From Candidatus Omnitrophota bacterium (lineage in GTDB: Bacteria > Omnitrophota > Gorgyraeia > Aquiviventales > Aquiviventaceae): 64,000 bases of DNA. The notes beneath the pieces were generated by a model. That model saw only the letters and a list, made by a program, of their open reading frames with translations. It ran no database searches and had not been told where the DNA came from. A program made the translations under genes and the position numbers. Location: positions 29,287 to 93,286 of the forward strand of contig JACQRB010000023.1 of NCBI GenBank assembly GCA_016206685.1, written 5' to 3'. Positions 5,252 through 21,601 of this stretch are shown piece after piece. How positions within the stretch are numbered: position 1 is the stretch's first letter; every line of letters begins with the position of its first letter.

Positions 5252-6013
5252 TCAGGGTTTCTTCACGCACACGAATCCGACGAAGTTGTACCACTGGAAG
5301 AATGTTTCAACGACCTGGAAGCCGGCCTTCCGAAACAGTGCCATATTCTCATCGATGCGGTAGGGAATCAGGACGTTCTCCAACGCCTCCCGCTTGCGCA
5401 GAATCTCGGTGTCGGAATAGCTGTTGCGTTTCTTGAACTCGTAGTAGAGCTCGATGAACAGCCGGTTCATGTCGCTGCTGTTGGTCAGAATCTTTTCCGT
5501 CACGATGAGCGCGCCGCCGTCCACAAGCGCCTCGTAGAGCCGCCGCAGCAGCGCCTCCCGATGCAGCGGTCGGACGAACTGCAGCGTCCAGCAGAGCGTG
5601 ATGATGCTGGCAGGCTCCAGCGGCGCGTCATTGATATCGCCGTAGCGGATATCAATCAGGTGATCAAGCCCTTGTGCCTTGATGCGACCCCGGGCCTTCT
5701 CGACCATCGGCATCGAGTTGTCGTAGCCGATGAGCTGCGGCTGGTCATCGTTGAGCTCCCGCGCCATATTCATGAGGGTCGTCCCCGTGGAGGAACCTAA
5801 GTCATAGATGCGGGTGTCCGGCGTGTAGAATTTCTTCGCCAGCTCTTTGATGACCATCTGCTGCTCCACGTAGAACGGGACGCTGCGCAGCAGCATGTCA
5901 TCGAACACCTCAGCGACTTCCCGTGTAAACGCAAAATCACTGCCTCGCGCGGCGGTCCCTTCAAAGAGCTGATCACGCATCCTCTCTCCTTGTGTCTCTG
6001 CGGCCTCGGTCAT
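5252..6013 (-). CDS. cmoA-like: CmoA-family protein (carboxy-S-adenosyl-L-methionine synthase homologue / class I SAM MTase fold)
   Basis: AEVFDDMLLRSVPFY...RIYDLGSSTGTT...IGYDNS.PMVEKAR...LQFV...DGGALIVTEKI...YSDTEILRKREALENVLIP...AGFQVVETFFQWYNFVGFVCVKK is collinear with E. coli CmoA (VAEVFPDMIQRSVPGYS...VYDLGCSLGAAT...IAIDNSPAMIERCR...LENVMLTD...FQCFNFGSLVALK). The start was chosen at the internal ATG 6013, which forms an ATGA overlap with the upstream gene. The track ORF extends to 6100. Confidence 0.7.
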   Translation of the reverse strand: MTEAAETQGERMRDQLFEGTAARGSDFAFTREVAEVFDDMLLRSVPFYVEQQMVIKELAKKFYTPDTRIYDLGSSTGTTLMNMARELNDDQPQLIGYDNSMPMVEKARGRIKAQGLDHLIDIRYGDINDAPLEPASIITLCWTLQFVRPLHREALLRRLYEALVDGGALIVTEKILTNSSDMNRLFIELYYEFKKRNSYSDTEILRKREALENVLIPYRIDENMALFRKAGFQVVETFFQWYNFVGFVCVKKP

Positions 6014-6735
6014 CGCCGGATCTCCAGCAGCTCGAAGCGCATCACCAGGCATAAGCCGTTCGTCAGCAACCGCCGCTGCTCGGCGTCGCGCATCGTCCAT
6101 GTCCGGACCGGATCATCGGCGCGCGGCGGCAGATCGAAGGGCAGCTCAAACGGAATGAACGTGTGCCGCTCCGGCCCGACGTGCACGTCGAGATAACGCG
6201 AGAACGACGCCTTGCTGAAGAGATTCCAGCCCGGCTCCCGATGCTCGGGGTCTGGATCGTCCACCAACCGGTACTTCACCCAGACGTCGATGGGATGCGG
6301 GTTGAAGCCGCCAAAGACGTACACGCGTCCTCCCGGTTTTGTCCAGAAGAGCAAGTTCGACAGGCAGGGTTCAAACGCATCGAAGATGGAATGCACCCCC
6401 AGCAGGAAGGCGATATCCAGCGAGGCCTCGGGCAACAGCGCCCGGTCCAGCACGGAGCCCTCTCGAAACGTCACACCGGGAACCTTGCGTCGCGCCTGCG
6501 CCAGCAATTCCGGCACCACGTCGTAGCCAGTGTAATGGGCGTCCGGCACTTGCCGCTTCAGATACGCGAGAAATTGTCCCGCCGCACACCCGAAATCGCC
6601 CACCTGCGCCCCCGGCATAAGCGCACCGCTGGCCTGAGCCTGTGCGTAGGCGACCTTAAAGACTTCTTTGGGACGTTCGTAGTACTCGTCCGCCAGATAG
6701 ATGGCCTTATCGTGCGTTCGCGCAACGTTGATCAT
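6010..6735 (-). CDS. class I SAM-dependent methyltransferase
   Basis: 241 aa. Motif I is VGDFGCAAGQF and the post-I acidic residue is YTGYDVV. Its size is typical for Methyltransf_11/12. Confidence 0.6.
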   Translation of the reverse strand: MINVARTHDKAIYLADEYYERPKEVFKVAYAQAQASGALMPGAQVGDFGCAAGQFLAYLKRQVPDAHYTGYDVVPELLAQARRKVPGVTFREGSVLDRALLPEASLDIAFLLGVHSIFDAFEPCLSNLLFWTKPGGRVYVFGGFNPHPIDVWVKYRLVDDPDPEHREPGWNLFSKASFSRYLDVHVGPERHTFIPFELPFDLPPRADDPVRTWTMRDAEQRRLLTNGLCLVMRFELLEIRR

Positions 6736-7829
6736 GCACAGGAACCCGCGCCCACTTGCCCCTCGTTTCCAAAGACGGCTGGGAACACCGCCTTACGGCA
6801 GCGCTGACAAGCCAGGGGCTGTTTGGAGCCGTCGGGATCATTCACCGCCAGTCGCAGCCGCTTCATCTCTTCGCTATTCCAAATCGCATGGAGACGCTGG
6901 TCGAACACGTTGCCGATGTGAAGACTCAGCCCATCGAAACTGCAGCACGGATGAACCGATCCGTCATTGTTGATCGAGACGCGCTGGTACGGCTGAGGGC
7001 AATCTCCCACTTGCAACAAATCGGTATCCGGAATGCGAAATTGCTGCTCGAGCTGTGCATAGTTCGAGTAGCTGGCGGCAGGGTTGACAAACGACTGGAT
7101 ACAAATGAAATCCACTCGGTCTTTCCAATACGCCACGAACTCGTCAAGCTCCTTGTGGTTGAGCTTGCTCTTGACGAACGACACCCGGGTAATTGGGAGT
7201 TGCTTGCCCTGGGCTTTTTTCATCTCCAGAAAGCGGTTGATGTTGCCCATCACCTGCTGAAAGTTGCCGCCCGGCCGCACGTGGTTGTAGGTGTCTTCCC
7301 GAATGGCATCGAGCGAGAAATAGAGTTTCGTGAGCCCTGCATTGAGGAGTTCCTGCGCGCGGGTTTCCGTCAGCATCGTCGCATTCGTCAGGATGATGAC
7401 ATCCAGGACCCCGGCCTGGCTGGCGTAGCGGATGTAGTCGTGGAGATTGCGGGTTCCCAGCGGTTCATTATTGACATTCAGGGTGACGGAGGCCAGGCCG
7501 TGTGGGACCCCCTCATCGATGATCTCCTTGAACTTCTCGAACGTCACCACGTTCTGGCGGTTCTGGACGGCGTACGGGTGGTTGGCATCAAACTCCTCCG
7601 GCTTGATCTGCAAGACGCACTGGGGACAGCGTAGGTTGCAGCCGTAGTACAGCTCAAAGTCGATGTGGATGGGGTAGTCCTGAACGACCTTGAGCTCTTT
7701 GGCCTCCTCCCACCGCTGCCGATAGGCTCGGTACGGCTCACCCAGGATCTGGGCGAGCTTCGCATCCGGATCTCCGGTCACGGTGACCTGCTTCCATGTT
7801 GGTTTGGACATCAGATCCTCCTCAGCCAT
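6732..7829 (-). CDS. radical SAM enzyme with C-terminal SPASM/twitch-type Cys-rich domain
   Basis: The CNLRCPQC (CxxxCxxC) radical SAM cluster motif is near the N-terminus. The C-terminal segment CPQPYQRVSINNDGSVHPCC...ACQRCRKA is SPASM-like. The start is uncertain: the track ORF runs to 7895, and internal Mets lie at 7829 and 7811. Confidence 0.7.
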   Translation of the reverse strand: MAEEDLMSKPTWKQVTVTGDPDAKLAQILGEPYRAYRQRWEEAKELKVVQDYPIHIDFELYYGCNLRCPQCVLQIKPEEFDANHPYAVQNRQNVVTFEKFKEIIDEGVPHGLASVTLNVNNEPLGTRNLHDYIRYASQAGVLDVIILTNATMLTETRAQELLNAGLTKLYFSLDAIREDTYNHVRPGGNFQQVMGNINRFLEMKKAQGKQLPITRVSFVKSKLNHKELDEFVAYWKDRVDFICIQSFVNPAASYSNYAQLEQQFRIPDTDLLQVGDCPQPYQRVSINNDGSVHPCCSFDGLSLHIGNVFDQRLHAIWNSEEMKRLRLAVNDPDGSKQPLACQRCRKAVFPAVFGNEGQVGAGSCA

Positions 7830-8666
7830 GAGGGAACACCGCGACCAGTGGCTGCGAGTGGCCTGGAGCGGCTCCAAATTCAACCAGCCGGACATTGAGG
7901 GCAGCAGCTTTCATGTGCTTTTTTGCTCTGGGATAGCTGTGCTCTGTAAAATGGAAGAGGTTGGCCGCCGCGACAGCGTCGGCTTGACCCTCCACGACCC
8001 CTTGGACAAAATGGTCAAACGTCCCGGCGCCGCCGCAGGCGATCACGGGAATGTCCACGGCTTCCGCGACCGAATGCACCAACGCCAGGTCATATCCCTG
8101 CGCCATGCCATCTCGATCAATGGAGTTCAAGAAGATCTCCCCGGCGCCCTGCCGTTGGGCTTCCTGCGCCCACGCCACCGGCTCGCGCCCGGTCGGCGCC
8201 CGGCCGCAGTCGGCGACCACCTCATAGCGCCCGTCGTCATGGCGCTTGACGTCAATGGACACGACCAGGCACTGGCGCCCGAACACGCGAGCCGCCTCCC
8301 GCAGAAACGACGGCTCCTTGAGCGCGGCCGTGTTGATGACCACTTTATCGGCGCCGCGGCGCAGGCGCTGCGCGATGTCATCGAGCGTGCGGATGCCGCC
8401 GCCGAACGCCAGCGGCACGAAGCAGGCTTTGGACACGGCCGAGAGGATGTCCAGGATGTTCCGGAGACTTTTCACCTTGTGGTCGTCCCGCCGCAAATCG
8501 TGCTCCCCGTCCCGCGTGATATCGAGGTAGATCAGCTCATCCACCTGCCAGTCGGTAAACCGCTTCACCTGATGGATCGGATCGCCCAGGTTCTGGTGAT
8601 ACTGGAACTGCTCGCTGCGGACGATCAGCCCGTTCTTCAGCAAGATGCAGGGAATCAGCCGGGTCT

Positions 8667-8673
<7 letters not shown>
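7822..8673 (-). CDS. HisF-like imidazole glycerol phosphate synthase cyclase subunit homologue (WbuZ-type, LPS/glycan amidotransfer)
   Basis: Internal start MLKTRLIPCILLKNGLIVRS...ELIYLDITRDG...IPVIACGGAGT matches the HisF N-terminus and the (beta/alpha)8 phosphate-binding motifs. The track ORF carries an approximately 35 aa spurious extension. Confidence 0.75.
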
Positions 8674-9289
<616 letters not shown>

Positions 9290-9293
<4 letters not shown>

Positions 9294-10447
9294 CGGGCCA
9301 CGGCCTCGGGGTGTTGATCCCAAATGTTGTCTTTCGCCCATCGGCCATCGGCATCCTTGCGCCACACGCGCGGGTCGCGGAAGGTGTCGGCGATGCGGTC
9401 GAACTCCTCTTCGGTCATGCCGACGTACTCCAGCCATCGCTTCAGATCCCGCGGCTTCACATGGTCGTACTTCCTGACCATTTCAATGCCTTCCTCGCGC
9501 ATCATGTAGCCGGCTCGGATGTCCTTGCAGGCGTGGTCCGTCGCGCGTCCGTAGCCGAACTTGATGTATTTCAGGTAATCATGCGCCCCGTTCTCATGCA
9601 TGTCGTCGAGATTGGAGAACTTCCGATACGTACGATCAAACGGCTCCGGGGACGGCTCCCAGCCATACCGCTCCATCACCAGCTTCACATGCCGGTTGGC
9701 GTCCCATTCCACGTAGTTGCCCAGGAAGATTCCCCGCACGCCGACGCGCGCAATCTCTTGATCCGAAGGATAGCGGGCCCAGAGCATGTCCTGCGGCGTC
9801 AAACCGTCCGATGTCCCCGCCTCCACCAGATCCGTCCAATCAAAGCCGCGCTTCACGTATTCGTACACGAACCGGGCGGTCAGCTCCACCATGTCATACA
9901 GGGAATACATCCCGGCTAAATCCACCTGGCCGTGCTCCCCGTAAAACACGAGCGGAATCTGATGCGTCACGGCGATCTGAACCGGAACGGTGTAGATGCC
10001 GCAGTGGTTGTGCCAGTTCATATCCCCCATGAGCGTAAAGCCCAGACGGTTCAGCGTGACGAGCGTCTTCACGCTTGGCGAGCAGATCACGTGATCCACC
10101 CCGAAGACCTCCCGCATCCGCATGAGGTTGCGCCATCCCACCTCCAGAAAGTTGTTGCCGTTGTACGTGACCAACAACGGGTTCATCCCAAACTGCTCTT
10201 TGATGAGGTGAGTCTGGTAATAACTGTCCTTGCCGCCGCTGACGGCAATGATGCAGTCGTAGTTGCTGCCGTCCTTGGAGCGATACTCCTCCAGGAGTTC
10301 GCGCAGCATCTGTTCGCGCCGCCCCCAGTCGATCTGTGGCTTCTGCTCATGCACGCGGCATCCACTGCAGACCCCACGGTCATCGAACGTCAGCGGCAAT
10401 GCTGACGCCGACGGATAGACGCACCGCGTGCAGTAGCGCATCGCCAT
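9290..10447 (-). CDS. N-acetyl sugar amidotransferase (WbuX/PseA-like PP-loop ATP pyrophosphatase with N-terminal zinc ribbon)
   Basis: 385 aa. The N-terminal sequence CTRCVYPS...CSGCRVHE is a zinc ribbon. The PP-loop SGGKDS sits in IIAVSGGKDSYYQ. This enzyme family co-occurs with HisH/HisF homologues. Confidence 0.7.
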
Positions 10448-12415
10448 TCAGACCCACTCCGCGCTGAAGGCGTCTTGCCACAACGCTAAGTTGACCGCCC
10501 GCCACAGGACCCGTTGCTCGGGCGCGCGCCATGCATCCCGCTGCAACCAGCGCTGCACGACCTTGCGATCAACCACCCGCGCCATGAACGGGTTGGCACA
10601 CACCAGTTCCGTCAGTCGCGGACGATGCTCCCGAAACCACTCGTCGGTGAGGCGATGCCGCATCCCCTGCTTCTGCACGCGGCAGCGGATGGCCTCGGGC
10701 AGCAATCCCTGCATGCTGTTCCTCAGCGGCGCCTTGCGCAGGCCGCCCTCGATGAGGTTCACCCTCTCAGCGGCAAAGCCGTACTCCACCAGGCGGTGAT
10801 CCAGAAACGGCACGCGGGCTTCGACCGAGTGAGCCATGGCGTTGCGGTCGGCATGGTGGAGGAAATACGGCAGCCGCTCCACATAGATGTTCCGCAGCAT
10901 GGCGGCCCGCAGACTGATCCCTTCCCAGAACGTTTCTCGTTTTGGACGCCGCGCCCACTGATACTGATGGAGCATCTGGTCGGACACCATCCGGCGACCG
11001 TGGATCCGGCCGGATCGAGACAGCGCGCGCTCCATGGTATTGAGGATGCCGTCCGGAATGACCCGTTGAAACGACCGCGCCAACGGCGTGAACAGCTCCC
11101 AGGGTTGGCCGCGGTAGTAGCGGCGCCACAACTGGGCAAACTCCGAGCCGGCGGCACGCACCCGCCCACGGCGCAGTAGATGCAGCAAGTACGGCGCGTC
11201 GTAGTACGGATAGCCAAGTAGATACTCATCTGCCCCATGGCCTTCGAGGCAGGTCTTCACGTGCCGGCGTGAGTAGCGATGGATTTGCCATTGCCCGACG
11301 GCGCCTGACCACTCCTGGAACGGCTGGTCGTAGGCATAGGCCACACGCCGCAGTTCCTCCAACGGCAACGGCTCCAAGGGCACCCGGTGAGTAGTAAAGC
11401 CGTCCAGTGCAGCCAAATGGGCGGCATGCTGCACGTCCTCGGTGTCCTGGGGTGAGACTCCCACGAACGCGTCAACCGGCCGGGACATGAAGAGGCGAAG
11501 GGCCGAGGACACCGAGGAGGAGTCCACCCCTCCGCTCAGGCTCACCCCCAGCGGCACGTCAGCCACGCTCCGCAGGCGGACGGCGTCCAAGAACAACTCC
11601 CGAAACGTGCACCCATTGGTGGCGACGGGGCCTCGCTCGGCCAAGTGATAGAATCGCCGCATGGTCAGGGTGTGCGAGTCCAACGCGTAGGTCGCCACCG
11701 TTCCCGGCTCCAGCGCATGAATGTCCGCGAAGAAGGTATTGGGCAGATGGTTCGTCCGGCTGAAGACGAGGTAGTCCCACACGGCATCAGGGTTTGCAAG
11801 GGCTCGGACGCCGGGACAGCACAGCAGCGCTTTGGGCTCTGAGGCGACCGCGAACACCGTCGGAAGGTCCACGAAGTAGAGCGGCTTGATCCCGAACCGA
11901 TCCCGAGACAGAAATAGGGTCCGAGCCGGTTGATCGAAGATCACAAACGCCCATTCCCCGTTGAACCGCTGGACACACGCCTCGCCCCATTGTTGGTACG
12001 CCTTCAGGATGACTTCGGTGTCCGCATTGGAGCGAAACCGATGGCCCAGTATTTCCAGATCATGACGGAGCTCGCGCCAGTTGTAAATCTCGCCGTTAAA
12101 GACAATCCAATAACGCTGCGTCTCGTCGGACATCGGTTGGTGGCCGCGAGCGCTGACATCTACGATCGCCAAGCGGCGGTGGCCCAACATTACATCCGGG
12201 AGGGGCATCTGGGGATTCAACCGCGGCAACTGGGCGCGGATTTCTTCCACCGTGTCTTCTCCGGCATACGCCTGAATCCGATCACTCGATGAATCATAAA
12301 GGGCGTAACCTTCATCATCCGGACCTCGGTGCCGCAGGGCATTGGTCATGCTGAACAGCGTGGCTCCTTCAAGAGGACTGGAATCTTTGGCAACGAGCGC
12401 GATAACCCCGCACAT
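10448..12415 (-). CDS. asparagine synthase (glutamine-hydrolysing)-like amidotransferase (AsnB family)
   Basis: 655 aa. MCGVIALV gives the N-terminal nucleophile Cys2 of the class II GATase domain. The synthetase domain has the PP-loop SLSGGVDSS. Confidence 0.8.
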   Translation of the reverse strand: MCGVIALVAKDSSPLEGATLFSMTNALRHRGPDDEGYALYDSSSDRIQAYAGEDTVEEIRAQLPRLNPQMPLPDVMLGHRRLAIVDVSARGHQPMSDETQRYWIVFNGEIYNWRELRHDLEILGHRFRSNADTEVILKAYQQWGEACVQRFNGEWAFVIFDQPARTLFLSRDRFGIKPLYFVDLPTVFAVASEPKALLCCPGVRALANPDAVWDYLVFSRTNHLPNTFFADIHALEPGTVATYALDSHTLTMRRFYHLAERGPVATNGCTFRELFLDAVRLRSVADVPLGVSLSGGVDSSSVSSALRLFMSRPVDAFVGVSPQDTEDVQHAAHLAALDGFTTHRVPLEPLPLEELRRVAYAYDQPFQEWSGAVGQWQIHRYSRRHVKTCLEGHGADEYLLGYPYYDAPYLLHLLRRGRVRAAGSEFAQLWRRYYRGQPWELFTPLARSFQRVIPDGILNTMERALSRSGRIHGRRMVSDQMLHQYQWARRPKRETFWEGISLRAAMLRNIYVERLPYFLHHADRNAMAHSVEARVPFLDHRLVEYGFAAERVNLIEGGLRKAPLRNSMQGLLPEAIRCRVQKQGMRHRLTDEWFREHRPRLTELVCANPFMARVVDRKVVQRWLQRDAWRAPEQRVLWRAVNLALWQDAFSAEWV

Positions 12416-12418
12416 AGT

Positions 12419-14611
12419 TCAGACACCTACCCCGTCAGCCACGCTAACTGGCTGGAATCGTTCCTGACGGAGACTGAATCGCACGGTTTCCCACACCGCG
12501 CCACCAACCAGACGTGACTGTCGCATCTCTGGTTGAAACCCCAGTTTCTCCAGCGTCTTGATGCTCGGCAGATTGTCCACCACCGCCCCCGCGATAATCT
12601 GTCGAAGTTCCAACCGGGAGAACGCATACGCGCACAGCAGGCTCCAGGCCTCGGTGGCGTAACCCTTGCCCCAGCAATCCTTCTCGCCGATCATCAGTCC
12701 GGTGTCTGCCGTTCCGGTCTGCCGGTTGATGTTGTTCAGTGTCACATTCCCGATGTGGCGGCAGGTGGCGTTTTCCACAATGGCAAAGATTCGGTGGGTG
12801 GTACTCTCACGAAACCGTTCCAGATAGGCGCGGATATCATCGAGCGTCATTGGGCGCTTCCCCACCTCGAGATAGCGGGTCACCGTGGCGTCATTCAACC
12901 AACCCAGATAGCGCACGGTCACATCCGCCTCGGTCAATGGCCGCAGAGAAATCCGTGAGCCTATCAATGCGTGGGGTGACTGCTCTAATTCGCGCACAGG
13001 CATGACAGTAGATCGGTCCGCAGCCAGGCGAAGCGTCAGATGAAGCGAGTACTTTGCTTGAACCCGCTGAAACCCGTTGGCCTCATACAGCGTGAGCGCT
13101 GCAATGTTTGTGGCTTCGGTACCGACTTCAAGCTGAGCCAAACCCCGCTCGATCGCCCACCGTTTCGCGGTTCCAAGCAGGACCGTCCCGATGCCACGGC
13201 CGCGCCAGCCTCGGGCGACGGCCAACAGGCCGATTGAACCAATCTCGCAGCCAAGCGCCTCGCTCAGCGCGTCCTCGCGGCGCATCGTGACATACCCCAC
13301 AGGCCGCCCGGCGGCTCGCGCCACCCGCACGACATCAGCCGCACTGCCATTGAGACAGTTCGCGATCCACCGAAGGTGCAAACGCCTCGTGCCCTCGACG
13401 GGAAGGTTGGGATCAGCATGGAATCGGGTCCCGGCGGCGAACGCCTCGGCCGTGATGGTGTCCAGCATAGGAGCATCCTGCGGGCGGGCTGATGTCACGA
13501 GGACATCATCGTGCGCGGGCGCCACCGCGTGAACGGAGACCGCCCAACGCAGTCCGAGGAACGTCGTCATAACCTGAAATCCTCGCCGCTGCGCCTGCCG
13601 TCGATGGATGACGTCCTCCGTCGGCACACGATAATGAAGGTGCGAAATCCCGCGTCGTCGAGCTTCCGCGATCACCTCATCCAAGATTTCATCTGATGGG
13701 TCCGTGAACGCGACGAGTTCAGCCATCGGCCATCCGTAGATCTCGCTGTCAAACGACAAGAGGCGCAGGATGGCGGCGCCTTCCCCATCAGGCGAGCCCG
13801 TCAATACCAACGAGGAGCCGTCGCGCGCCAGCTTCAACTGCACGAGCCGCTCGGCAGCCTCCAGGCTCATCGCGGAATCACCGCCCCAGCCCGATTGTTC
13901 CAGCGGCGCCAGCACCTCCACCGCGCGCTGCACGGCCTCAAGCCGACGCACGATGTCCGACCCACGCCAGCGAAGGCATTCCGACTCATTCCCGGCGCAC
14001 AGCGCCCGAACCTTCGCCAAGTCTGCCGGCGTGTCGACTGTCACCGAGCAGGCAGCCGGCGGCGTCGGAGTCGGTGCCTTCCACGTGACGATCCGAAACT
14101 GTTGTGGATGTTCCTTCATGACCAGCGTCACGTGCTCGCGATGGGCGGGCGTTGTGGCGGCCTGCTCGGCTCGGCGCAGCGCGTCGAGCGTGGTGACTTC
14201 AGAGCCTGCGCCGTCAATAAGATCGCACGCCACCGCCAGATCGGCTCCGTGGGCGGCGCGCTCCTTCACCAACATGTCCAGCACTTCGGGGTCGGTCAGC
14301 GCGTTATCGGCCGTGACGCGAACGATCACCTCCGCGCGCACCTGCCGCGCGGCCTTGAGGTACCGGCCCAGGACGTCGTCCTCGCTGCCGACGACCGACG
14401 GCACCCCCAGGGTGCTAGCCAACTCGAGGATCGGCCGGTTCGCCGGCACATCGCCCGTCGCCACCACGATGCCGTCCAACGATCTTGCCTGGCGCAGACG
14501 TTCCACCAAAAACTGGAGGAGCGGCTTGCCGGCGATCGGCATGAGGACTTTGCCGGGCAGACGCCGCGACTGCATGCGGGCCTGGATGATAGCGACCGTC
14601 CGCATGGTCAT
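12419..14611 (-). CDS. tri-domain fusion: acylneuraminate/SpsF-type cytidylyltransferase + two GNAT N-acetyltransferase domains (PseH/RimL-like)
   Basis: The real start is the internal MTMRTVAIIQARMQSRRLPGKVL (CMP-sugar synthetase motif) at 14611, ATGA-coupled to the upstream gene. The first approximately 205 aa of the 935 aa track ORF are Arg/Gly-rich out-of-context sequence. The middle GNAT domain is IGSIGLLAVARGWRGRGIGTVLL. The C-terminal GNAT domain is ISLRPLTEADV...GLMIGEKDCWGKGYATEA. Confidence 0.7.
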   Translation of the reverse strand: MTMRTVAIIQARMQSRRLPGKVLMPIAGKPLLQFLVERLRQARSLDGIVVATGDVPANRPILELASTLGVPSVVGSEDDVLGRYLKAARQVRAEVIVRVTADNALTDPEVLDMLVKERAAHGADLAVACDLIDGAGSEVTTLDALRRAEQAATTPAHREHVTLVMKEHPQQFRIVTWKAPTPTPPAACSVTVDTPADLAKVRALCAGNESECLRWRGSDIVRRLEAVQRAVEVLAPLEQSGWGGDSAMSLEAAERLVQLKLARDGSSLVLTGSPDGEGAAILRLLSFDSEIYGWPMAELVAFTDPSDEILDEVIAEARRRGISHLHYRVPTEDVIHRRQAQRRGFQVMTTFLGLRWAVSVHAVAPAHDDVLVTSARPQDAPMLDTITAEAFAAGTRFHADPNLPVEGTRRLHLRWIANCLNGSAADVVRVARAAGRPVGYVTMRREDALSEALGCEIGSIGLLAVARGWRGRGIGTVLLGTAKRWAIERGLAQLEVGTEATNIAALTLYEANGFQRVQAKYSLHLTLRLAADRSTVMPVRELEQSPHALIGSRISLRPLTEADVTVRYLGWLNDATVTRYLEVGKRPMTLDDIRAYLERFRESTTHRIFAIVENATCRHIGNVTLNNINRQTGTADTGLMIGEKDCWGKGYATEAWSLLCAYAFSRLELRQIIAGAVVDNLPSIKTLEKLGFQPEMRQSRLVGGAVWETVRFSLRQERFQPVSVADGVGV

Positions 14612-15432
14612 CCCCGGGCTCCGAATGGCAGCCCCGTCCCTACGCGCTGCGCCAGCTCCCGATACGCCGCGACGAGACGTCCCGCGTCTCGATAGTATTC
14701 GATCGTCACGAACTCCACCGGCGCGCGCGCGCAGAGCCACTCGAGCAGCTCCCATTCCCGCGGCCCCGGTGGCTCGTGCAGGTCCTCCCAGATCCCGCTG
14801 AGCGGGCCGCACGCGCTGATCTGCACTTCGCGCACGCGATGGAGCGGCAAGGCCTCCAGGTACGCCTCGGGTGTCGTTCCCAGATTTTCGGCGGAAATCC
14901 TGGCGTGCGCCACATCCAGCAGCAGCTCCGCGTCGATCGCCTCCAGCACCCGGCCCATGAAGCCGGGGTCGCAGACCATGCCGTAGGCATCGCTGGGGGT
15001 TGGAAAATAGTTGAGGTTCTCTACGCGCAGCGTTCCCGGAAAACGCGCGCGCAACCACGCCGCGTGGCGGCGGGCCAAGGCGATGTACTCCGGCTCGCCC
15101 AGGCGAGGGCCGCGAAGGTGGTAGCGGGGATAGCCGTTGGGCGAGGCGACCGTCTCCACGTCGTGGACGGCCGGACCGAAGTCGCAGGCGACACTCTGGA
15201 CCGAACGGCGCGCCATCAAGCGCCACAGCCCGAGCTCCTCAAGCTGCGCGCCAAAGGCCTCATCAATGATGTTGACCGGGGTGTCCATGAACGCCGTGGC
15301 GTTCGGGAAGCACGGCTCCGGTCGGTACCGCTTATATGTGACCGCGGCAATCAGGGGCGCCAAGGCATCAGCCGCCGCCAACGCCGCGTCGCTGGAGGCG
15401 ACGCACAGTCGTGGAACGACGTCGCTTCTCAT
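14608..15432 (-). CDS. DUF692/MNIO-like TIM-barrel protein (xylose-isomerase-like superfamily), function unknown in this context
   Basis: 274 aa from internal Met MRSDVV... LRVENLNYFPTP...LLLDVAHARISAENLGTTPEAYLEALPLHRVREVQISAC...ELLEWLCARAPV.EFVTIEY resembles the UPF0276/DUF692 pattern (ENVSxY...LLLDVNNVYV...DP..YLD.LP..RV.E.H.AG), recalled from memory. It is ATGA-coupled on both sides, at 14608-14611 and 15429-15432. Confidence 0.5.
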   Translation of the reverse strand: MRSDVVPRLCVASSDAALAAADALAPLIAAVTYKRYRPEPCFPNATAFMDTPVNIIDEAFGAQLEELGLWRLMARRSVQSVACDFGPAVHDVETVASPNGYPRYHLRGPRLGEPEYIALARRHAAWLRARFPGTLRVENLNYFPTPSDAYGMVCDPGFMGRVLEAIDAELLLDVAHARISAENLGTTPEAYLEALPLHRVREVQISACGPLSGIWEDLHEPPGPREWELLEWLCARAPVEFVTIEYYRDAGRLVAAYRELAQRVGTGLPFGARG

Positions 15433-16466
15433 CCCCCCACGTGTCTCCACGTAACCGCCTCTTCGCTCTTCACGTCGCAGGCCAGACGTCGCCCTTTGAT
15501 CTGAGGCCACTCCCACGATGATAGGGCGCGTCTCGATCGTTCGGCCGCGCGAGCCGGGCGCTGGAACACTACACGCGCGCGCTGGAGCACCGTCCCGCTC
15601 GCCAGAGGCTCCGAGGCGACGATGATGCGGCGCGCCGTCGCGCGCACCGGTCGCTCCGCGGCGACCGGCGCCTTGCGGGAGCTGCCCAGCGCTTGCTCGA
15701 CACACCGCACGCCGTCAACCAGCGCCTTCAATTCGTGGGTATCCACGGAGAAGCGGTGGTCGTCGCCGGGCAACGCATGATCGAGCGTAAAATGCTTTTC
15801 GATAATCGAAGCTCCCAGCGCCACGGCCGCGCAGGGGACCGCGATGCCCATCGTGTGGTCCGAGAACCCAACCGGCACGCGCAGCGCCCGGCGGAGCGTC
15901 TCCATGGCTCGCAGGTGGACGTTGGCCGGCTGCGCGGGATACTGCGAGACGCACTGCAAGACGGCGATCTGGGAGACGCCGCCCTGGCGCAGCACCGCCA
16001 CCGCCCGGCGGATCTCGCCCATATCCGCCATTCCGCTGGAGAGGATCACCGGCTTCCGCATGGAGGCGACGTGAGCCAGCAAAGGCCGGTGGGTCACGTC
16101 ACACGAGGCGATCTTGTACGCGGGAACCCCCACGCGCTCCAAGAGATCGACACTGGGCTCATCCAGCGGCGTCGAAAACCAGACGATGCGCGCGTCACGC
16201 GCCGCGCTCGCGATCGCGCGATAGTCCTCGACGGAGAGCGCGGCGCGCCGGTACTCGGCATAATCCGCGCTCGAGCGTGGCAGGAGCTGGTCCACCCGGC
16301 ATGTTTGAAACTTGATCGCATCCGCGCCGGCCTTGGCTGCCTCCTGAACCAACCGGATCGCCAATCCCCGGCGCCCGAGATGATTAATCCCAGCTTCCGC
16401 GACGATAAAGACCGGTCGTCCTTCTCCGATGCGTCGTCTGTTGATGGTCATGACGGGAAGCGACAT
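15429..16466 (-). CDS. N-acetylneuraminate synthase family protein (NeuB/PseI/LegI-like nonulosonic acid synthase) with C-terminal SAF domain
   Basis: GRPVFIVAEAGINHLG, AIKFQT and FSDHTMG are hallmark NeuB-family motifs. The start was chosen at Met 16466, 1 nt after the upstream stop. Confidence 0.8.
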   Translation of the reverse strand: MSLPVMTINRRRIGEGRPVFIVAEAGINHLGRRGLAIRLVQEAAKAGADAIKFQTCRVDQLLPRSSADYAEYRRAALSVEDYRAIASAARDARIVWFSTPLDEPSVDLLERVGVPAYKIASCDVTHRPLLAHVASMRKPVILSSGMADMGEIRRAVAVLRQGGVSQIAVLQCVSQYPAQPANVHLRAMETLRRALRVPVGFSDHTMGIAVPCAAVALGASIIEKHFTLDHALPGDDHRFSVDTHELKALVDGVRCVEQALGSSRKAPVAAERPVRATARRIIVASEPLASGTVLQRARVVFQRPARAAERSRRALSSWEWPQIKGRRLACDVKSEEAVTWRHVGG

Positions 16467-16467
16467 G

Positions 16468-17667
16468 TCACGCGCGGTATTTGGCGACCAGGCGTCGCAC
16501 GGCGGCAATGACGTCCCACACGTCCTCCTCGCTCATCTTCGGCGAAATCGGCAGCGACACGGTGCGTTCAAAGAGCGACTCGGCCACCGGAAAACTTCCC
16601 GGGGGATACCCCAACGCTTTCTGGTAGTACGAATGCAAATGGAGGGGGCGGAACAGCACGCTCGTGCCGATCTGTTCGGTCCGGAGCTCCTCGATGAACT
16701 GATCACGGCTGATTCGTAGCCGCTTCGGTTGCAGAAGGATGGAGTAAAGGTGCCAGGCCGACCGCACCTCCGGCTTGGCCTGCGGTCTGACAATCTCCTC
16801 CAAATCGGCAAACGCCTCCGTGTACATCGCCGCAAAGCGGGCGCGGCGCTGCAGGAACTGTTCCAGCTTCGCCAGTTGGTGCAGGCCCAACGCCGCCTGA
16901 ATATCCATCATGTTGTACTTGTAGCCAAGCTCCTGGATGTCATAAAACCAGGAGCCGCGCGGGGCGTAGCGACCCCAGATGCGCCGGGCATCGCTGATGC
17001 CGTACATGGACAATCGCCGCATCCGCTCCGCCATCTCCGGGTCATTCAGCATCGCCATGCCGCCTTCGCCGGTCGTCAGATTTTTGGTCGCATAGAAACT
17101 GAAGCAGGTGACGGGACCGAAGCTGCCGATCTTGCGCCCGTGGTACTCACTGCCGATGGCGTGGGCGGCATCCTCGATCACGGCGAGGCGATGGCGCTTG
17201 GCGATCGCGTAGATCGCGTCGAGATCGCAGGGATGTCCGGCGTAATGGACGATCACCAACGCCTTGGTGCGCGGCGTCACGGCGGCTCCCAGACGCGTCG
17301 GATCGATGTTGAATGTCTGCGCCTCGCTGTCGACGAAGACGGGACGGGCCCGTTGGTACATCACGACGTGGGCGGTGGAAGCAAACGTGTAGGTAGGCAA
17401 GATGACCTCATCCCCCTCGCCGATGTCATGCGCGACCATCGCCAGATGGAGCGCCGCGGTACAGGAGCTGACGGCCACCGCGCACCGGACCCCCACATAC
17501 TGGGCCACTTGCTCCTGAAACCGTTCCGTTTTCGGGCCGGTGGTGATCCACCCCGAATCCAGCGTGTCCAGGAGCTCCGCCTTTTCTTCCGGCCCGATGA
17601 GAGGCGGAGCGAATGGTTGGAACGTGGTGCGCCGCGGGCGGGTGTCAAGGGCGGCTACGTCAGGCAT
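16468..17667 (-). CDS. DegT/DnrJ/EryC1/StrS-family PLP-dependent sugar aminotransferase (PseC/LegC-like)
   Basis: The internal start is MPDVAAL... SCTAALHLA, DEVILPTYTFASTA and the PLP-lysine context FSFYATKNLTTGEGG are present. Confidence 0.8.
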   Translation of the reverse strand: MPDVAALDTRPRRTTFQPFAPPLIGPEEKAELLDTLDSGWITTGPKTERFQEQVAQYVGVRCAVAVSSCTAALHLAMVAHDIGEGDEVILPTYTFASTAHVVMYQRARPVFVDSEAQTFNIDPTRLGAAVTPRTKALVIVHYAGHPCDLDAIYAIAKRHRLAVIEDAAHAIGSEYHGRKIGSFGPVTCFSFYATKNLTTGEGGMAMLNDPEMAERMRRLSMYGISDARRIWGRYAPRGSWFYDIQELGYKYNMMDIQAALGLHQLAKLEQFLQRRARFAAMYTEAFADLEEIVRPQAKPEVRSAWHLYSILLQPKRLRISRDQFIEELRTEQIGTSVLFRPLHLHSYYQKALGYPPGSFPVAESLFERTVSLPISPKMSEEDVWDVIAAVRRLVAKYRA

Positions 17668-18658
17668 TGCGGTACCTCGCTGCAAAAGGGTCTTCGATTT
17701 GCCGCATGAGAATCGCCTGATACATCTCCCGGACCCCATCCTCCACGGAGTAGGACACGCGATAGCCAAACATCCGGTGGATTTTGTCAAAGCTCACGTG
17801 GTAATCCCGCAGGTCGGGTGGAACGTCCGTCGTCTCAACCGTGATGCCCGGGAGGGTCCGCTTGACGATATCTCCGAGTTGATAGATCTGATAGTTTTGT
17901 TCGTTCGATCCGACGTTGAAAATGTGCCCTCGGACGAGATCGGCCGGTGCGCCAAGCGCCAGGATGTAGGCCCGGGCCGCATCCGCCACATGGACCAGCG
18001 GTCGCCACTGTTTGCCGCCGTAGACCGTGCAGGTCCCGCGCGTCGCCGCGTGCATCGTCAGGATGTTCACGATCAGGTCAAAGCGCATGCGCGGCGAGAG
18101 GCCGTAGATCGTCGCCATCCGTAGCACGCAGGGCGCAAACGGCTCGCTGGTCAGTGCCAGGATCTTGCGTTCTGCCTCAGCCTTCAGGCACGCGTAGAGC
18201 GAGATGGGCTTCAAGGACGCCTCTTCTGTCAGCACGCCCTCCTGAATGCCGTAGGCACTATCCGTGGAGGCAAAGAGGAAGCGTGGAATGCCCTGGGCTG
18301 CGCACGCTTCGGCAATGGCGACCGTCGCAACGTAATTGATCTCCCGCGTCTCCTGCGGGTCACGATCGCAGGCGGCGTCCCCGACCAGCGCGGCCAGGAG
18401 AATCACGGCGGCAACGCCCTGCAGCGCGTCCATGACGCGCTGCCGATCACGCATGTCCGCTTGAATCATCTCGAGATTCGGATAGGTCCGCAGGCCGGCC
18501 AGCGCCTCCTCGCCGAACAGCAAGCGATCAAAGACGCGCACGCGATAGCCAGCCTCCAGCAACTGGCCTGTCAGGACGGAGCCCAGATATCCCGCGCCGC
18601 CGAAGACCAGCACGGTGGGAGGGGCGGCGTCACGTGCGGTGTGCGACGGCGTGGTCAT
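17660..18658 (-). CDS. NAD-dependent epimerase/dehydratase (extended SDR)
   Basis: VLVFGGAGYLGS is a Rossmann GxxGxxG motif. YACLK is the Yxxx(K) catalytic motif. Confidence 0.7.
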   Translation of the reverse strand: MTTPSHTARDAAPPTVLVFGGAGYLGSVLTGQLLEAGYRVRVFDRLLFGEEALAGLRTYPNLEMIQADMRDRQRVMDALQGVAAVILLAALVGDAACDRDPQETREINYVATVAIAEACAAQGIPRFLFASTDSAYGIQEGVLTEEASLKPISLYACLKAEAERKILALTSEPFAPCVLRMATIYGLSPRMRFDLIVNILTMHAATRGTCTVYGGKQWRPLVHVADAARAYILALGAPADLVRGHIFNVGSNEQNYQIYQLGDIVKRTLPGITVETTDVPPDLRDYHVSFDKIHRMFGYRVSYSVEDGVREMYQAILMRQIEDPFAARYRNA

Positions 18659-19583
18659 CCACCTCATCCTGTTGTTGTCGAAACCACGCGATGGTCCGCA
18701 CCAGGCCATCAGCCAGCGACCAGCGAGGTGCCCAGCGCAACTCCCGCGCTGCCTTGGTCACGGCGGCCCGGGAATCATGGACATCGCCCTGACGTGGGGG
18801 CGCATACGTCATGTCGCTCGGGCTGCGGCTGAGGCTTAACACCTCGCGCGCGAGCTCGAGCACGGAGCGTGAGACGCCTGTCCCGATGTTGTAGACGCCC
18901 TGCCCGGCCTGCGCCGCCAGCAGGTTGGCATGCACCACGTCGTCCACGTACACGAAATCGCGCGTCTGCGTCCCGTCCCCGTAGATGATCAGGTGGTCGC
19001 CCCGTAGCGCCCGCGAGATAAACGCGGGGATGACGGCCGCGTAGTCCGAATCGGGCGATTGGCGTGGACCGAAGACATTAAAATACCGCAGCGCGACGTA
19101 GGGTAAGCCGTCAAGCTGGGCGTACATCTCCAGCAGATGTTCCCCACTGACTTTGGTCACGCCGTAGAGATTGGCCGGTCGCGGAGGTTCGCGCTCATCT
19201 TTGGAGCCTGCCGGCTCATCGGCATACACCGCCGAGGAGCTGGAAAACACGACTTTGCGCACACCATGGCGCGCAGCGCTGCGCAGCACATTGAACACCC
19301 CCACGGTGTTGACTTCCACACACCGGTGGGGCCGTTGGAAACTGTCTTCCATCGCGACGAACGCCGCCAGATGAAACACGACCTCTGCGCCCGCCATCGC
19401 CTCTTCCACCGCTGTGGCATCCGTCAGATCCGCTTCGATGAGCCGAGCCGACGCCGGCACATGCGCCCGCTGTCCTGTCTCAAAGTTATCGAGTACCGTC
19501 ACCACGACGCCTCGCTCGAGCAAAGCCGCCGCTACGTGACTGCCGATAAATCCGGCTCCACCGGTCACCAGCGCCGACTTCAT
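18630..19583 (-). CDS. NAD-dependent sugar epimerase (GalE-like extended SDR)
   Basis: The internal start is MKSALVTGGAGFIGSH, and YGVTK carries the catalytic Tyr/Lys. It has an ATGA overlap with the upstream gene at 19580-19583. Confidence 0.75.
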   Translation of the reverse strand: MKSALVTGGAGFIGSHVAAALLERGVVVTVLDNFETGQRAHVPASARLIEADLTDATAVEEAMAGAEVVFHLAAFVAMEDSFQRPHRCVEVNTVGVFNVLRSAARHGVRKVVFSSSSAVYADEPAGSKDEREPPRPANLYGVTKVSGEHLLEMYAQLDGLPYVALRYFNVFGPRQSPDSDYAAVIPAFISRALRGDHLIIYGDGTQTRDFVYVDDVVHANLLAAQAGQGVYNIGTGVSRSVLELAREVLSLSRSPSDMTYAPPRQGDVHDSRAAVTKAARELRWAPRWSLADGLVRTIAWFRQQQDEVDDHAVAHRT

Positions 19584-21601
19584 AGCCGCATCGCTCCCAC
19601 GCCCTCCGGAGCCGCAGCCCATCTGCCCTCCATTCCGACCGCCATCGCTTCGGCTTGCGGCACCATCCCACCCAACACCCCCAGAAAGTTCCGGAAGGCC
19701 GCATTGCCGTTGAGGCCGGGGGGCACGCCAATGAAGTCGCACACCGACTCCTCGCGCAGACGATGGTTCAGAGGAGCCTCGTCTTCCTTCCCGTGTAGTC
19801 GGCGAATCAGGGCCTTCAGCCCCTCGTAGTTATGGGTGATGTACGCTCGAATCGACGGATGCTGCTCCGGTCCGAGCTGCCCGGTCGGATCGTGGAAAAA
19901 TCCCGGCACGCCGAGGTGCCAGCCGGCGCACACCGGCGTGCTGCCCGGCAGGCTGATACAGACATCCGCCGTCACGATGGGCACCCACGGATTCAGGTCC
20001 TCGTCCACCACGACGGCCCGGTCGTGGCCCTTGAGCTGCTCCACGAGGCGGTGGTACCGCTCAAACCGCTTCCCGAACCGCTGCGGCATGAGGTGTCCCC
20101 GCTTCGGCTTATAGACCAAGACGATCTCCCTCACCTCGTGGAGCACGCGGACCATATCCTCCAGGAATCGAACCGTGTACTCTTCGGTATAGGGACTGGT
20201 GTACGGGCAGGTCTGGCGTGGACGAGCCAGGGGTTTCGGGCTCGGCGGCAGATCAAAGACCGCCACATACGTGAAGGTCTCCCGGGGCGCGTCCTCTCGA
20301 TGGAGGTAGGTGCGACGTAAGACGTGCCGTTCCTGGGTGAGCACTCGTTCGTCACCGGCCATGGTCGGTCCCAGCACCGTCATGGTCAGCCGTTCGTCTT
20401 GCGGATGGCGCTCAAAGAGCCGCTTGGCCTGGGGATTCCAGCACACCAGACGAGAGGCCAGGAGATGCGCATAGAGAAAGTCATGCTGCTCACACCCGCC
20501 CGGATGGGTATAAAACACCAGCATCGCAGAGATGTTGTACATCACGGTGGCGATCCCGAGCTTGTCGAGGTAGACGACGGCCGGTTCTTCAACGCCCAAG
20601 CTGCTGTCCGTTTCCAAGAAACATGCCGGCTGGACGTGGTCAAGCAGGGGGGCGAATTTCACTACGCTGGCTAGATAGCGGCTGACCATGCCGTGCGCTG
20701 CGCCAGGAACCGGCTGGATCATCCCCCGCCCGATGGCCCCCAGCACGTCTGCCATCGCCCGCCAGAGATGCCGGGAGGACAGATGCTGGTACAGTTCCGA
20801 GAACGTGCCTACGCGGTAGGGAGTTCCGATGAGCTCGCGTCGCAGGCTTGGCACGCCAGGATCGGAGGGGTTCGGCACGATCACGAGCAGGTCGTCCGGA
20901 CGGATGCGGACGCCGTCCATCAGCCAGGTGAATGAGCGCTTCTCCGACGAGACGTGGAGCTCGTTGACGTTATCGCACCAGTAGAGATACCGGTAGGAGG
21001 CCAGCGTCCGTCGCGTGAGCCGCAGACGTGCCGCGAGTCCTCCGATCAGCCACGCGAACAGGCGCCCCCATACCACGCCGTTCAACCACCCCTCCCACAG
21101 GCGGTCACAGGCGACGTGGAACTGGGATAAGCGCCTCGTCATACCGTCGCCGTCGAAGCACGGTGAGGGGGCTGCATGGGTGGCCAGCCATGCGGACCGC
21201 GAGGAGTGCACCACAACGGCGCAGGCCGCCGACGCATGCCGTCGTCGAATCTCCTGCAAAAGACAGACGTCGTCGAACGCCCGCCCCAGCTCCTGCTTGG
21301 CCTTCGTCGAGAAGTCAATGCAAAGGCCGCGGAAGGTCCGCTGCCACGGTTCCCTCGGCAGGCGCGCAGCGATGGCTTCCCATGCCCTGAAGGTGCGCGC
21401 ACGAAATGCCCAACTGTCTTCTCTGGAGGCAAAGTAGTCGTCCGTGTCGATTTGTTCCACCCGCCGCCGCATGAAGCGGGCGCAGGAGGGATGGATATAG
21501 AGCGTTTTCACCGTGACAACAAAGGACAGTAGCCAGTAGATCGGCGCGTTGACGGGGTGGATCTCGGTGACCAGGATGACGCGCGAGGCGCGAAGGGTCA
21601 T
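19580..21601 (-). CDS. large uncharacterised protein; possible GT-B-like glycosyl/glycerophospho-transferase or nonulosonic-acid transferase
   Basis: 673 aa with no classical motif recognised. The C-terminal IVTADVCISLPGSTPVCAGW faintly resembles the TagF/capsule-synthesis D-x-x-x-T-D-Y-S-S region. Its position inside a nonulosonic-acid module suggests a transferase. Confidence 0.3.
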   Translation of the reverse strand: MTLRASRVILVTEIHPVNAPIYWLLSFVVTVKTLYIHPSCARFMRRRVEQIDTDDYFASREDSWAFRARTFRAWEAIAARLPREPWQRTFRGLCIDFSTKAKQELGRAFDDVCLLQEIRRRHASAACAVVVHSSRSAWLATHAAPSPCFDGDGMTRRLSQFHVACDRLWEGWLNGVVWGRLFAWLIGGLAARLRLTRRTLASYRYLYWCDNVNELHVSSEKRSFTWLMDGVRIRPDDLLVIVPNPSDPGVPSLRRELIGTPYRVGTFSELYQHLSSRHLWRAMADVLGAIGRGMIQPVPGAAHGMVSRYLASVVKFAPLLDHVQPACFLETDSSLGVEEPAVVYLDKLGIATVMYNISAMLVFYTHPGGCEQHDFLYAHLLASRLVCWNPQAKRLFERHPQDERLTMTVLGPTMAGDERVLTQERHVLRRTYLHREDAPRETFTYVAVFDLPPSPKPLARPRQTCPYTSPYTEEYTVRFLEDMVRVLHEVREIVLVYKPKRGHLMPQRFGKRFERYHRLVEQLKGHDRAVVVDEDLNPWVPIVTADVCISLPGSTPVCAGWHLGVPGFFHDPTGQLGPEQHPSIRAYITHNYEGLKALIRRLHGKEDEAPLNHRLREESVCDFIGVPPGLNGNAAFRNFLGVLGGMVPQAEAMAVGMEGRWAAAPEGVGAMRL

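Follow-up and report, generated by a model that had tools for sequence, protein, structure and literature searches.

An atypical DUF692/MNIO-like protein of nonulosonic acid operons as a candidate analogue of PseG and LegG

Why is a protein of the DUF692/MNIO family encoded in the middle of an operon for sialic-acid-like sugars? To our knowledge, the MNIOs characterized so far all modify ribosomal peptides, and genome-mining pipelines take a match to the Pfam family PF05114 as a marker for ribosomally synthesized peptides that carry post-translational modifications (RiPPs). The question is raised by a stretch of 64,000 nucleotides from a Candidatus Omnitrophota bacterium (contig JACQRB010000023.1; here called the window), in which one gene, referred to as X (14608-15432, minus strand; 274 amino acids), lies between a gene for a NeuB-family synthase and a gene for a cytidylyltransferase fused to acetyltransferase (GNAT) domains. 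We conclude that X is very probably a metal-dependent triosephosphate isomerase (TIM)-barrel enzyme that acts on a sugar in a cytidine monophosphate (CMP)-nonulosonic acid pathway and not on a peptide. Its specific role may be to release the free 2,4-diamino-2,4,6-trideoxyhexose derivative from its nucleotide carrier, as an analogue of PseG and LegG; we propose this tentatively, giving it a little less than an even chance.

The case for a sugar pathway begins with the gene contexts of X relatives. We found 19 relatives by word-indexed search and 76 by profile search, and when 1.84 billion cluster representatives were searched exhaustively by profile, 193 were returned at E ≤ 1e-30 (these being 50%-identity clusters) and 795 at E ≤ 1e-10; the clade is sizeable and uncurated. 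Gene neighborhoods and 15 loci, the latter obtained by scanning one genome per species, together gave 28 nonredundant contexts, which were annotated by tblastn with the window proteins and by clustering of open reading frames (ORFs). In 21 of these 28, X has a NeuB homologue no more than 6 kb away, usually with DegT and CTP_transf_3 genes, and homologues as low as ~30% identity still occur in NeuB/DegT/CTP_transf_3 clusters, which are found in more than ten phyla. Hosts include Omnitrophica, Acidobacteria, Vicinamibacterales, Ca. Scalindua, Nitrospirae, Verrucomicrobia, Bryobacterales, Arcobacter, Nitrospinaceae, Desulfobacterales, Parcubacteria, and Prochlorococcus; Ca. Scalindua, Desulfobacterales, Parcubacteria, and Omnitrophica are strict-anaerobe lineages. 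The target belongs to group A, in which a tight core is formed by NeuB, cytidylyltransferase, X, and a WecD-like GNAT. Group B loci carry DegT, X, an adh_short protein (PtmA-like), a short NeuB, GNAT, cytidylyltransferase, and a class III aminotransferase, often with an RmlA-like nucleotidyltransferase and a dehydratase-type short-chain dehydrogenase/reductase (SDR) nearby. Methyltransferases are also found among the neighbors of X in relatives' loci. None of the 28 contexts is a RiPP-like cluster, and no MNIO partner (such as DUF2063) or precursor family appears in the annotated homologue neighborhoods.

In one locus (L032), a single X gene is surrounded by three NeuB homologues (11607-12446, 14141-15211, and 18986-20002) and by two or three cytidylyltransferases, which suggests that several nonulosonic acid pathways coexist there.

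Domain fusions, identified in Pfam scans of long relatives, link X physically to enzymes of the nonulosonic acid pathway. They join CTP_transf_3 to X (P0030, P0082, and a 500-amino-acid ORF in locus L010), NeuB and SAF domains to X (P0132, P0151, and P0189), X to GNAT (P0178, P0184, and P0201), and X to a class I methyltransferase (P0124). Because the GNAT and NeuB partners act just before and just after hydrolysis of the nucleoside diphosphate (NDP)-sugar, these fusions bracket the PseG/LegG step. The preliminary description of this DNA, made from the sequence alone, had suggested that the MNIO fold may be used here on a sugar or nucleotide sugar; cross-phylum synteny and the NeuB, cytidylyltransferase, and GNAT fusions strongly support that suggestion. 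A giant protein (P0206; 2768 amino acids) combines DUF218, an X-like PF05114 domain (residues 941-1086), and a cytidine/deoxycytidylate deaminase domain.

Which step of the pathway, then, lacks an enzyme? NDP is released by PseG in pseudaminic acid pathways and by LegG/NeuC in legionaminic and neuraminic acid pathways. The window and the related locus L001 contain a candidate gene for each canonical step (SDR, DegT, GNAT, NeuB, and cytidylyltransferase) save NDP-sugar hydrolysis. Scanning with Pfam the large ORFs of the minus strand as far as 50266 revealed no PseG or NeuC, nor did six-frame phmmer and hidden Markov model (HMM) searches of the window with reference PseG, NeuC, and WecB sequences (these came from annotated plasmid loci that a search with the window's NeuB had identified); the absence first reported for the module thus holds for the whole 64 kb. 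Over 440,690 bases (the window and 27 X loci), the PseG and NeuC/WecB HMMs gave no match at E ≤ 10, and the precomputed Pfam annotation of ten X neighborhoods includes neither Epimerase_2 nor Glyco_tran_28. By contrast, PseG or NeuC is present in all five multigene control nonulosonic acid loci, each of which lacks X, so that a hydrolase occurs in 0/21 NeuB-containing X loci versus 5/5 controls (Fisher's exact test, p = 1.5e-5). A search with a single Mesorhizobium PseG sequence detected a haloarchaeal "hypothetical protein" in a control locus (E = 1e-14), which indicates that the sensitivity of the PseG search is reasonable. This mutual exclusion supports the earlier idea that X fills the missing step, without proving the step itself.

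Conserved neighbors of X were also considered as hidden PseG or NeuC proteins. Pfam and NCBIfam searches of ~30 neighbor ORFs yielded no candidate, with one ambiguous case, comp15 (368 to 404 amino acids; L002 5408-6622, L003 4152-5258, and L007 3368-4528). This protein has no Pfam match and is encoded between a methyltransferase and a cytidylyltransferase, two genes from X; it may be a remote NeuC relative or divergent hydrolyzing epimerase, or just another GT-B protein. A PFTS-motif protein was rejected as the hydrolase: it is found in only two X loci, and it co-occurs with NeuC in an Azospirillum control. The NeuC/WecB HMM weakly matches the PFTS protein of that control (L026 7481-8971; E = 1.7e-4) and not that of the window (19580-21601), and PFTS proteins may be remote GT-B relatives.

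Both its score against the Pfam threshold and its fold make X a PF05114 protein, yet it is an atypical MNIO, lacking the ligand set and, in our scans, a partner and a precursor. The DUF692/MNIO assignment of the preliminary description stands: PF05114 (MbnB_TglH_ChrH) matches X at E = 2.5e-11 with 43.8 bits (cutoff, 25), the match being confined to the C-terminal half of X and to positions 119-255 of the 263 in the profile, and PF01261 (AP_endonuc_2) gives no match at E ≤ 1. A few relatives carry a precomputed PF01261 match together with PF05114. HMMs place X with the MNIOs and not in an ordinary sugar isomerase family: the only NCBIfam models to match are MNIO models, all far under their cutoffs (ApyH, 71.7 of 400 bits; BufB, 31 of 310; HvfB, 28.5 of 360), and no curated NCBIfam model covers X. 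Its sole PDB sequence match is 8hci, a DUF692 protein (TglH). The AlphaFold2 model of X, built from a 52-sequence alignment, is an eight-stranded α/β barrel (pLDDT, 94.8; pTM, 0.91) whose nearest structures are MNIOs, the barrel being closest to MbnB, TglH, or HS_1138. These are followed by a continuum of xylose-isomerase-like barrels, from a tagatose-3-epimerase-like protein (17.5) and endonuclease IV (17.0) through IolI, allulose epimerases, YcjR, IolE, AsbF, AtHYD, and AL1; Foldseek agrees.

Homologues of X do occur routinely in loci of the pseudaminic/legionaminic acid type, as had been considered at the outset, yet with no assigned step or curated model. We found no paper that connects DUF692, MNIO, or UPF0276 with sugars, nonulosonic acids, or the replacement of PseG, and the words sugar, NeuB, and aminotransferase are absent from the 2025 MNIO landscape paper.

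We placed the metal ligands of X by HMM alignments to MbnB and TglH and by hmmalign tables. MbnB coordinates Fe1 through H54, H90, and E133, Fe2 through E133, D163, H192, and E239, and Fe3 through N166, D208, and H210 (PMC9060507). The predicted ligands of X are D50, D84, E138, D173, H176, Q204, D217, H219, and E245. Five of the nine are identical to those of MbnB; the others change H54 to D50 and H90 to D84 (Fe1), H192 to Q204 (Fe2), and N166 to H176 (Fe3). Three of the five nonbridging ligands of the catalytic Fe1/Fe2 pair are therefore altered, leaving the redox-active site of MbnB minus three histidines. The MNIO iron-ligand set sought in X is thus not kept, and the predicted pattern appears closer to that of endonuclease IV. 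Across the clade, positions 138/173/176/204/217/219/245 read E-D-H-(H/Q)-D-H-E with almost no exceptions, versus E-D-N-H-D-H in canonical MNIO matches. The third metal site (H176, D217, and H219) is invariant over the clade, including the His at the Fe3 position, which is Asn in 14 of 21 canonical MNIO matches. Positions 50 and 84 vary by group: D or E with D in group A, H with D in an intermediate group, H with H in group B, and H with G in transporter-linked relatives. Group B relatives retain both Fe1 histidines plus the whole Fe2 set.

Endonuclease IV (Nfo) is a phosphodiesterase that cuts a sugar-O-P bond. We take its zinc ligands to be H69, H109, E145, D179, H182, H216, D229, H231, and E261, an assignment reportedly made from the 1999 structure of Hosfield et al.; the entries for the Nfo mutants H69A, Y72A, and E261Q in our structure search fit this numbering. 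Aligned by hhalign to E. coli Nfo (a sequence identical to 1qtw_A), X pairs E138 with E145, D173 with D179, H176 with H182, Q204 with H216, D217 with D229, H219 with H231, and E245 with E261. In this in-register alignment, which is of low probability (16.6%; E = 0.0015), six of the seven C-terminal positions are identical in X and all seven in most relatives. Judged by these alignments, the single position at which the X clade departs from MNIOs is one where it is like endonuclease IV. In single-metal sugar epimerases, an E-D-H-E site suffices and the third site is absent.

The missing step, the mutual exclusion, the bracketing fusions, the metal site, and the anaerobic hosts lead us to favor X as a PseG/LegG analogue. 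Such an enzyme would act between N-acylation and NeuB condensation. As in endonuclease IV, its center might be bi- or trinuclear (D50/D84/E138; E138/D173/Q204/E245; H176/D217/H219), and would activate water, stabilize the leaving group, and cut the sugar-1-O-diphosphonucleotide linkage; NeuB would then join the free aldose to phosphoenolpyruvate, and the fused cytidylyltransferase would activate the product. In a variant of this scheme, an extra SDR would make a transient 3-keto-NDP-sugar from which X would expel NDP by E1cB elimination, and the resulting glycal would be rehydrated. This SDR-assisted route would resemble 3-keto-glucoside lyase/hydratase systems, and C2 epimerization might also occur. 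We infer substrate, metal, and reaction alike from what was observed of the fold, family, ligand pattern, synteny, fusions, and PseG/NeuC absence. A broader proposition falls somewhat further short of an even chance: that a large clade of the PF05114 fold was never peptide active, has an endonuclease IV-like multinuclear site, cleaves nucleotide sugars, and has displaced PseG/LegG in many mostly uncultivated phyla (among them Omnitrophica, Acidobacteria, anammox Planctomycetes, Nitrospirae, the candidate phyla radiation, and Prochlorococcus), with sister clades in sugar uptake operons.

Several observations weigh against the PseG/LegG analogy. PseG cuts the C1-O bond, so that an endonuclease IV-like attack on P-O would be a different mechanism with the same net reaction, and the profile alignment to Nfo described above covers the C-terminal half only. 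The controls are few (five) and span a narrow taxonomic range, and several of the X loci consist of short contigs. comp15 aligns weakly with NeuC by hhalign (262 columns; probability, 76%; E = 2e-5), and if it is a real hydrolyzing epimerase, X has another role in L002, L003, and L007. Relatives in group B come with a short-chain dehydrogenase in every case, X is accompanied in two Chitinophagales loci by an HPPD-like protein and an SDR but by no NeuB, and more distant relatives close CUT1 sugar ATP-binding cassette (ABC) transporter operons. The SDR pairing and the Chitinophagales pattern fit enolate chemistry, such as that of an epimerase or dehydratase.

The chief alternative builds on that fit: X would be an enolate-chemistry epimerase, isomerase, or dehydratase of the xylose-isomerase-like superfamily. 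Its substrate could be an NDP-4-keto-6-deoxyhexose, with X as a 3- or 5-epimerase before DegT transamination, or a free hexose epimerized at C2; in either case X would determine the stereochemistry of an unusual nonulosonic acid. Points in favor of such an enzyme are that group B has a constant oxidoreductase partner, that DegT is adjacent, and that site 1 is rich in carboxylates, together with the Chitinophagales context, but no locus examined would then have an enzyme for NDP release. The invariant third site (H176, D217, and H219) is otherwise known only from endonuclease IV and MNIOs, and the GNAT and NeuB fusions flank the hydrolase step rather than the keto-sugar step. On balance we regard this alternative as unlikely, though still a serious competitor of the PseG/LegG analogy.

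Considerably less probable is that X is a true O2-dependent MNIO that tailors the sugar, hydroxylating or desaturating the nonulosonate or a precursor. X does pass the PF05114 gathering threshold, its nearest structures are MNIOs, group B keeps both Fe1 histidines and the entire Fe2 set, and the methyltransferase neighbors and the single X-methyltransferase fusion suggest tailoring; if correct, this would be the first non-peptide substrate of MNIO chemistry. However, three of the five nonbridging Fe1/Fe2 ligands are altered in the target, and the strict-anaerobe host lineages disfavor O2-dependent chemistry. X is also one of the conserved core genes (NeuB, cytidylyltransferase, X, and GNAT) and not part of the variable tailoring periphery, and the missing hydrolase would go unexplained. 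Finally, the reading of X as an ordinary RiPP MNIO in a glycan island, or as a modifier of a later-glycosylated peptide or protein, has the family name and Pfam match in its favor and nothing else, and is close to refuted by the sugar-gene synteny across many phyla, the NeuB, cytidylyltransferase, and GNAT fusions, scores far under the curated MNIO equivalog cutoffs (e.g., ApyH), and the finding of no DUF2063, MbnC, or TglI-type partner and no apparent RiPP precursor-like gene among the ORFs scanned across the window, small ORFs not having been scanned exhaustively.

We also considered and rejected X as the Campylobacter legionaminic acid protein PtmF. PtmF is a 326-amino-acid oxidoreductase and PtmA a 254-amino-acid SDR; they correspond to the GFO_IDH and adh_short neighbors of X, not to X itself.

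The Chitinophagales loci have a layout of their own. In L018 (8472-11250), a 389-amino-acid HPPD/glyoxalase-like protein is encoded directly 5′ of X and an adh_short SDR directly 3′; in L022 (9620-11166 and 12765-13913), X is directly followed by an adh_short SDR, with a homologue of the HPPD-like protein ~1.6 kb downstream of the SDR. Neither locus has a NeuB within 10 kb of X. This layout recalls the TIM-barrel plus HPPD-like architecture of the dehydroshikimate dehydratase QuiC1 (5hmq). In L004 (X, 8001-8810), L005 (X, 5345-6154), and JGI contig 3300043331, a relative of X is the last gene of a CUT1-type importer operon, alongside a LacI regulator and a zinc alcohol dehydrogenase, and has the ligand pattern H,G,E,D,H,H,D,H,E. 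These importer operons are a second carbohydrate, non-RiPP context for PF05114-scoring proteins.

The 274-amino-acid ORF translates without internal stops, and its ATGA junctions on both sides, reported in the preliminary description, are read in the sequence: the ATG of X (15432-15430) shares an ATGA (15429-15432) with the TGA of the NeuB-family ORF (15429-16508), and its TGA (14610-14608) shares an ATGA (14608-14611) with the ATG of the downstream ORF (12419-14611), whose N terminus is MTMRTVAIIQARMQ. Four-base ATGA overlaps are common in operons and show only operon membership; that part of the earlier claim is upheld, and cotranslation is a further inference. The mechanical ORF of X extends 91 codons further 5′, to a GTG at 15705, but 13 homologues begin where the ATG at 15432 aligns, which identifies 274 amino acids as the correct length. 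An identical protein is recorded in a Candidatus Omnitrophica metagenome-assembled genome as "DUF692 family protein." The stretch around X is 68% GC, and the open frames of X (14608-15705) and of the downstream gene (12419-15226) overrun the real starts by 91 and 205 codons and overlap the preceding genes; automatic callers may mis-start them.

The neighbors of X proved by Pfam and NCBIfam to be as first described, with two GNAT domains in the downstream fusion. All lie on the minus strand, in the transcription order PFTS protein, SDR 1, SDR 2, DegT, NeuB plus SAF, X, 730-amino-acid fusion, AsnB-like. Immediately upstream of X, the nonulosonic acid synthase (15429-16508; NeuB domain PF03102, E = 3e-81, plus SAF; start codon uncertain) scores 324 bits with TIGR03569 and 262 bits with PseI, both under the equivalog cutoffs. 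Downstream, the 730-amino-acid protein (12419-14611; PF02348, PF00583, and PF13302) consists of a CMP-sugar cytidylyltransferase (residues 1-225), a WecD-like GNAT (~282-522; NF008212), and a PseH-like GNAT (~553-693; TIGR03585). A DegT/PseC-like sugar 4-aminotransferase (16468-17790; PF01041, E = 2e-133; TIGR03588 PseC, 364 bits) probably has its true start further downstream. SDR 2 (17660-18709; PF01370; motifs STDSAYG and YACLK), a candidate 4,6-dehydratase or extra oxidoreductase, has weak LegB and GalE matches and an orthologue of 71% identity in L001; SDR 1 (18630-19742; PF01370, E = 1e-66, plus NCBIfam matches) is GalE/TviC-like and lacks the dehydratase D-E pair. These motifs give a mere hint as to which of the two is the dehydratase. 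A dehydratase-type SDR, DegT, an N-acyltransferase, a NeuB-family synthase, and a CMP-transferase are thus all contiguous between 12419 and 19742. The PFTS-motif polysaccharide biosynthesis protein (19580-21601; TIGR04417, 95 bits) has an orthologue in L001. In that locus, the cytidylyltransferase is a separate 229-amino-acid protein and formyltransferases take the place of the GNATs, which indicates that the N-acyl groups differ between otherwise orthologous clusters.

Further along in the same direction, the AsnB-like amidotransferase (10448-12415), WbuX (9290-10447), HisH-like (8667-9437), and HisF-like (7822-8778) tailoring genes look like acetamidino-forming machinery. They are followed by a radical S-adenosylmethionine (SAM)/SPASM enzyme (6732-7895, minus strand), two class I methyltransferases (6010-6735 and 5252-6100, minus strand), and an ABC exporter; a radical SAM/SPASM gene also adjoins X in L001, L012, L013, L017, L019, L024, and L031. 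Every gene scanned in the window lies on the minus strand, and almost every one is a cell surface glycan gene, which makes for an unusually long one-direction glycan island (large ORFs scanned from 190 to 50266). The island also holds several more SDRs, a second DegT, two C-methyltransferases (Methyltransf_13/14), PMT_2-type transferases, GT2 and GT4 enzymes, a UDP-sugar dehydrogenase, GFO_IDH, and FkbM. Near X clusters of three unrelated lineages lies a gene for a small winged-helix (HTH_24/MarR-like) protein (window 24406-25092, minus strand; L012 4500-5129; L020 6253-6831), which may be a dedicated regulator of these clusters.

If X acts on sugars as proposed, its clade breaks the rule that an MNIO signifies a RiPP, and PF05114 matches need to be reread, since the sugar clade yields false RiPP cluster calls. 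X would offer the first non-peptide substrate for the family, possibly with non-redox hydrolytic or eliminative chemistry, and a mechanistic link between MNIOs and endonuclease IV. It is also a concrete candidate for the step missing from the sialic-acid-like pathways of many environmental bacteria, for which pathway predictions currently fail for want of PseG, LegG, or NeuC. The hypothesis is directly testable with known substrates and existing reconstituted pseudaminic and legionaminic acid enzyme sets.

How does X compare with known systems? It is 12 to 17% identical to the MNIO/DUF692 proteins MbnB, TglH, ChrH, ApyH, BufB, and HvfB, matches the family profile in the C-terminal half only, and differs from them in its nucleotide-sugar context and fusions, in the lack of a partner or precursor in our scans, and in the anaerobes among its hosts. 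Endonuclease IV is a trinuclear zinc phosphodiesterase; relative to it, X has no PF01261 match, and two site-1 histidines are replaced by Asp and H216 by Gln, whereas group B has H/H at site 1. The substrate of X would be a nucleotide sugar, and that of Nfo is DNA. Xylose-isomerase-like sugar enzymes that work alongside an oxidoreductase (YcjR/YcjS, the 3-keto-glucoside 1,2-lyase AL1, the hydratase AtHYD, and QuiC1) bind one metal in an E-D-H-E site without the third site of X, and we know of no enzyme of these types from nonulosonic acid pathways. With PseG and LegG/NeuC, X would share the proposed net reaction, the pathway position, and the genomic slot between acetyltransferase and synthase. 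It has no sequence or fold relation to PseG (a GT-B UDP-sugar hydrolase) or LegG/NeuC (Epimerase_2), and in Pfam and NCBIfam searches it matches neither TIGR03590 nor Epimerase_2; X is a TIM barrel predicted to be metal dependent, whereas PseG and NeuC are metal independent, with a GT-B or epimerase fold. The relation between X and PseG/LegG would be one of functional analogy by non-orthologous displacement, not homology.

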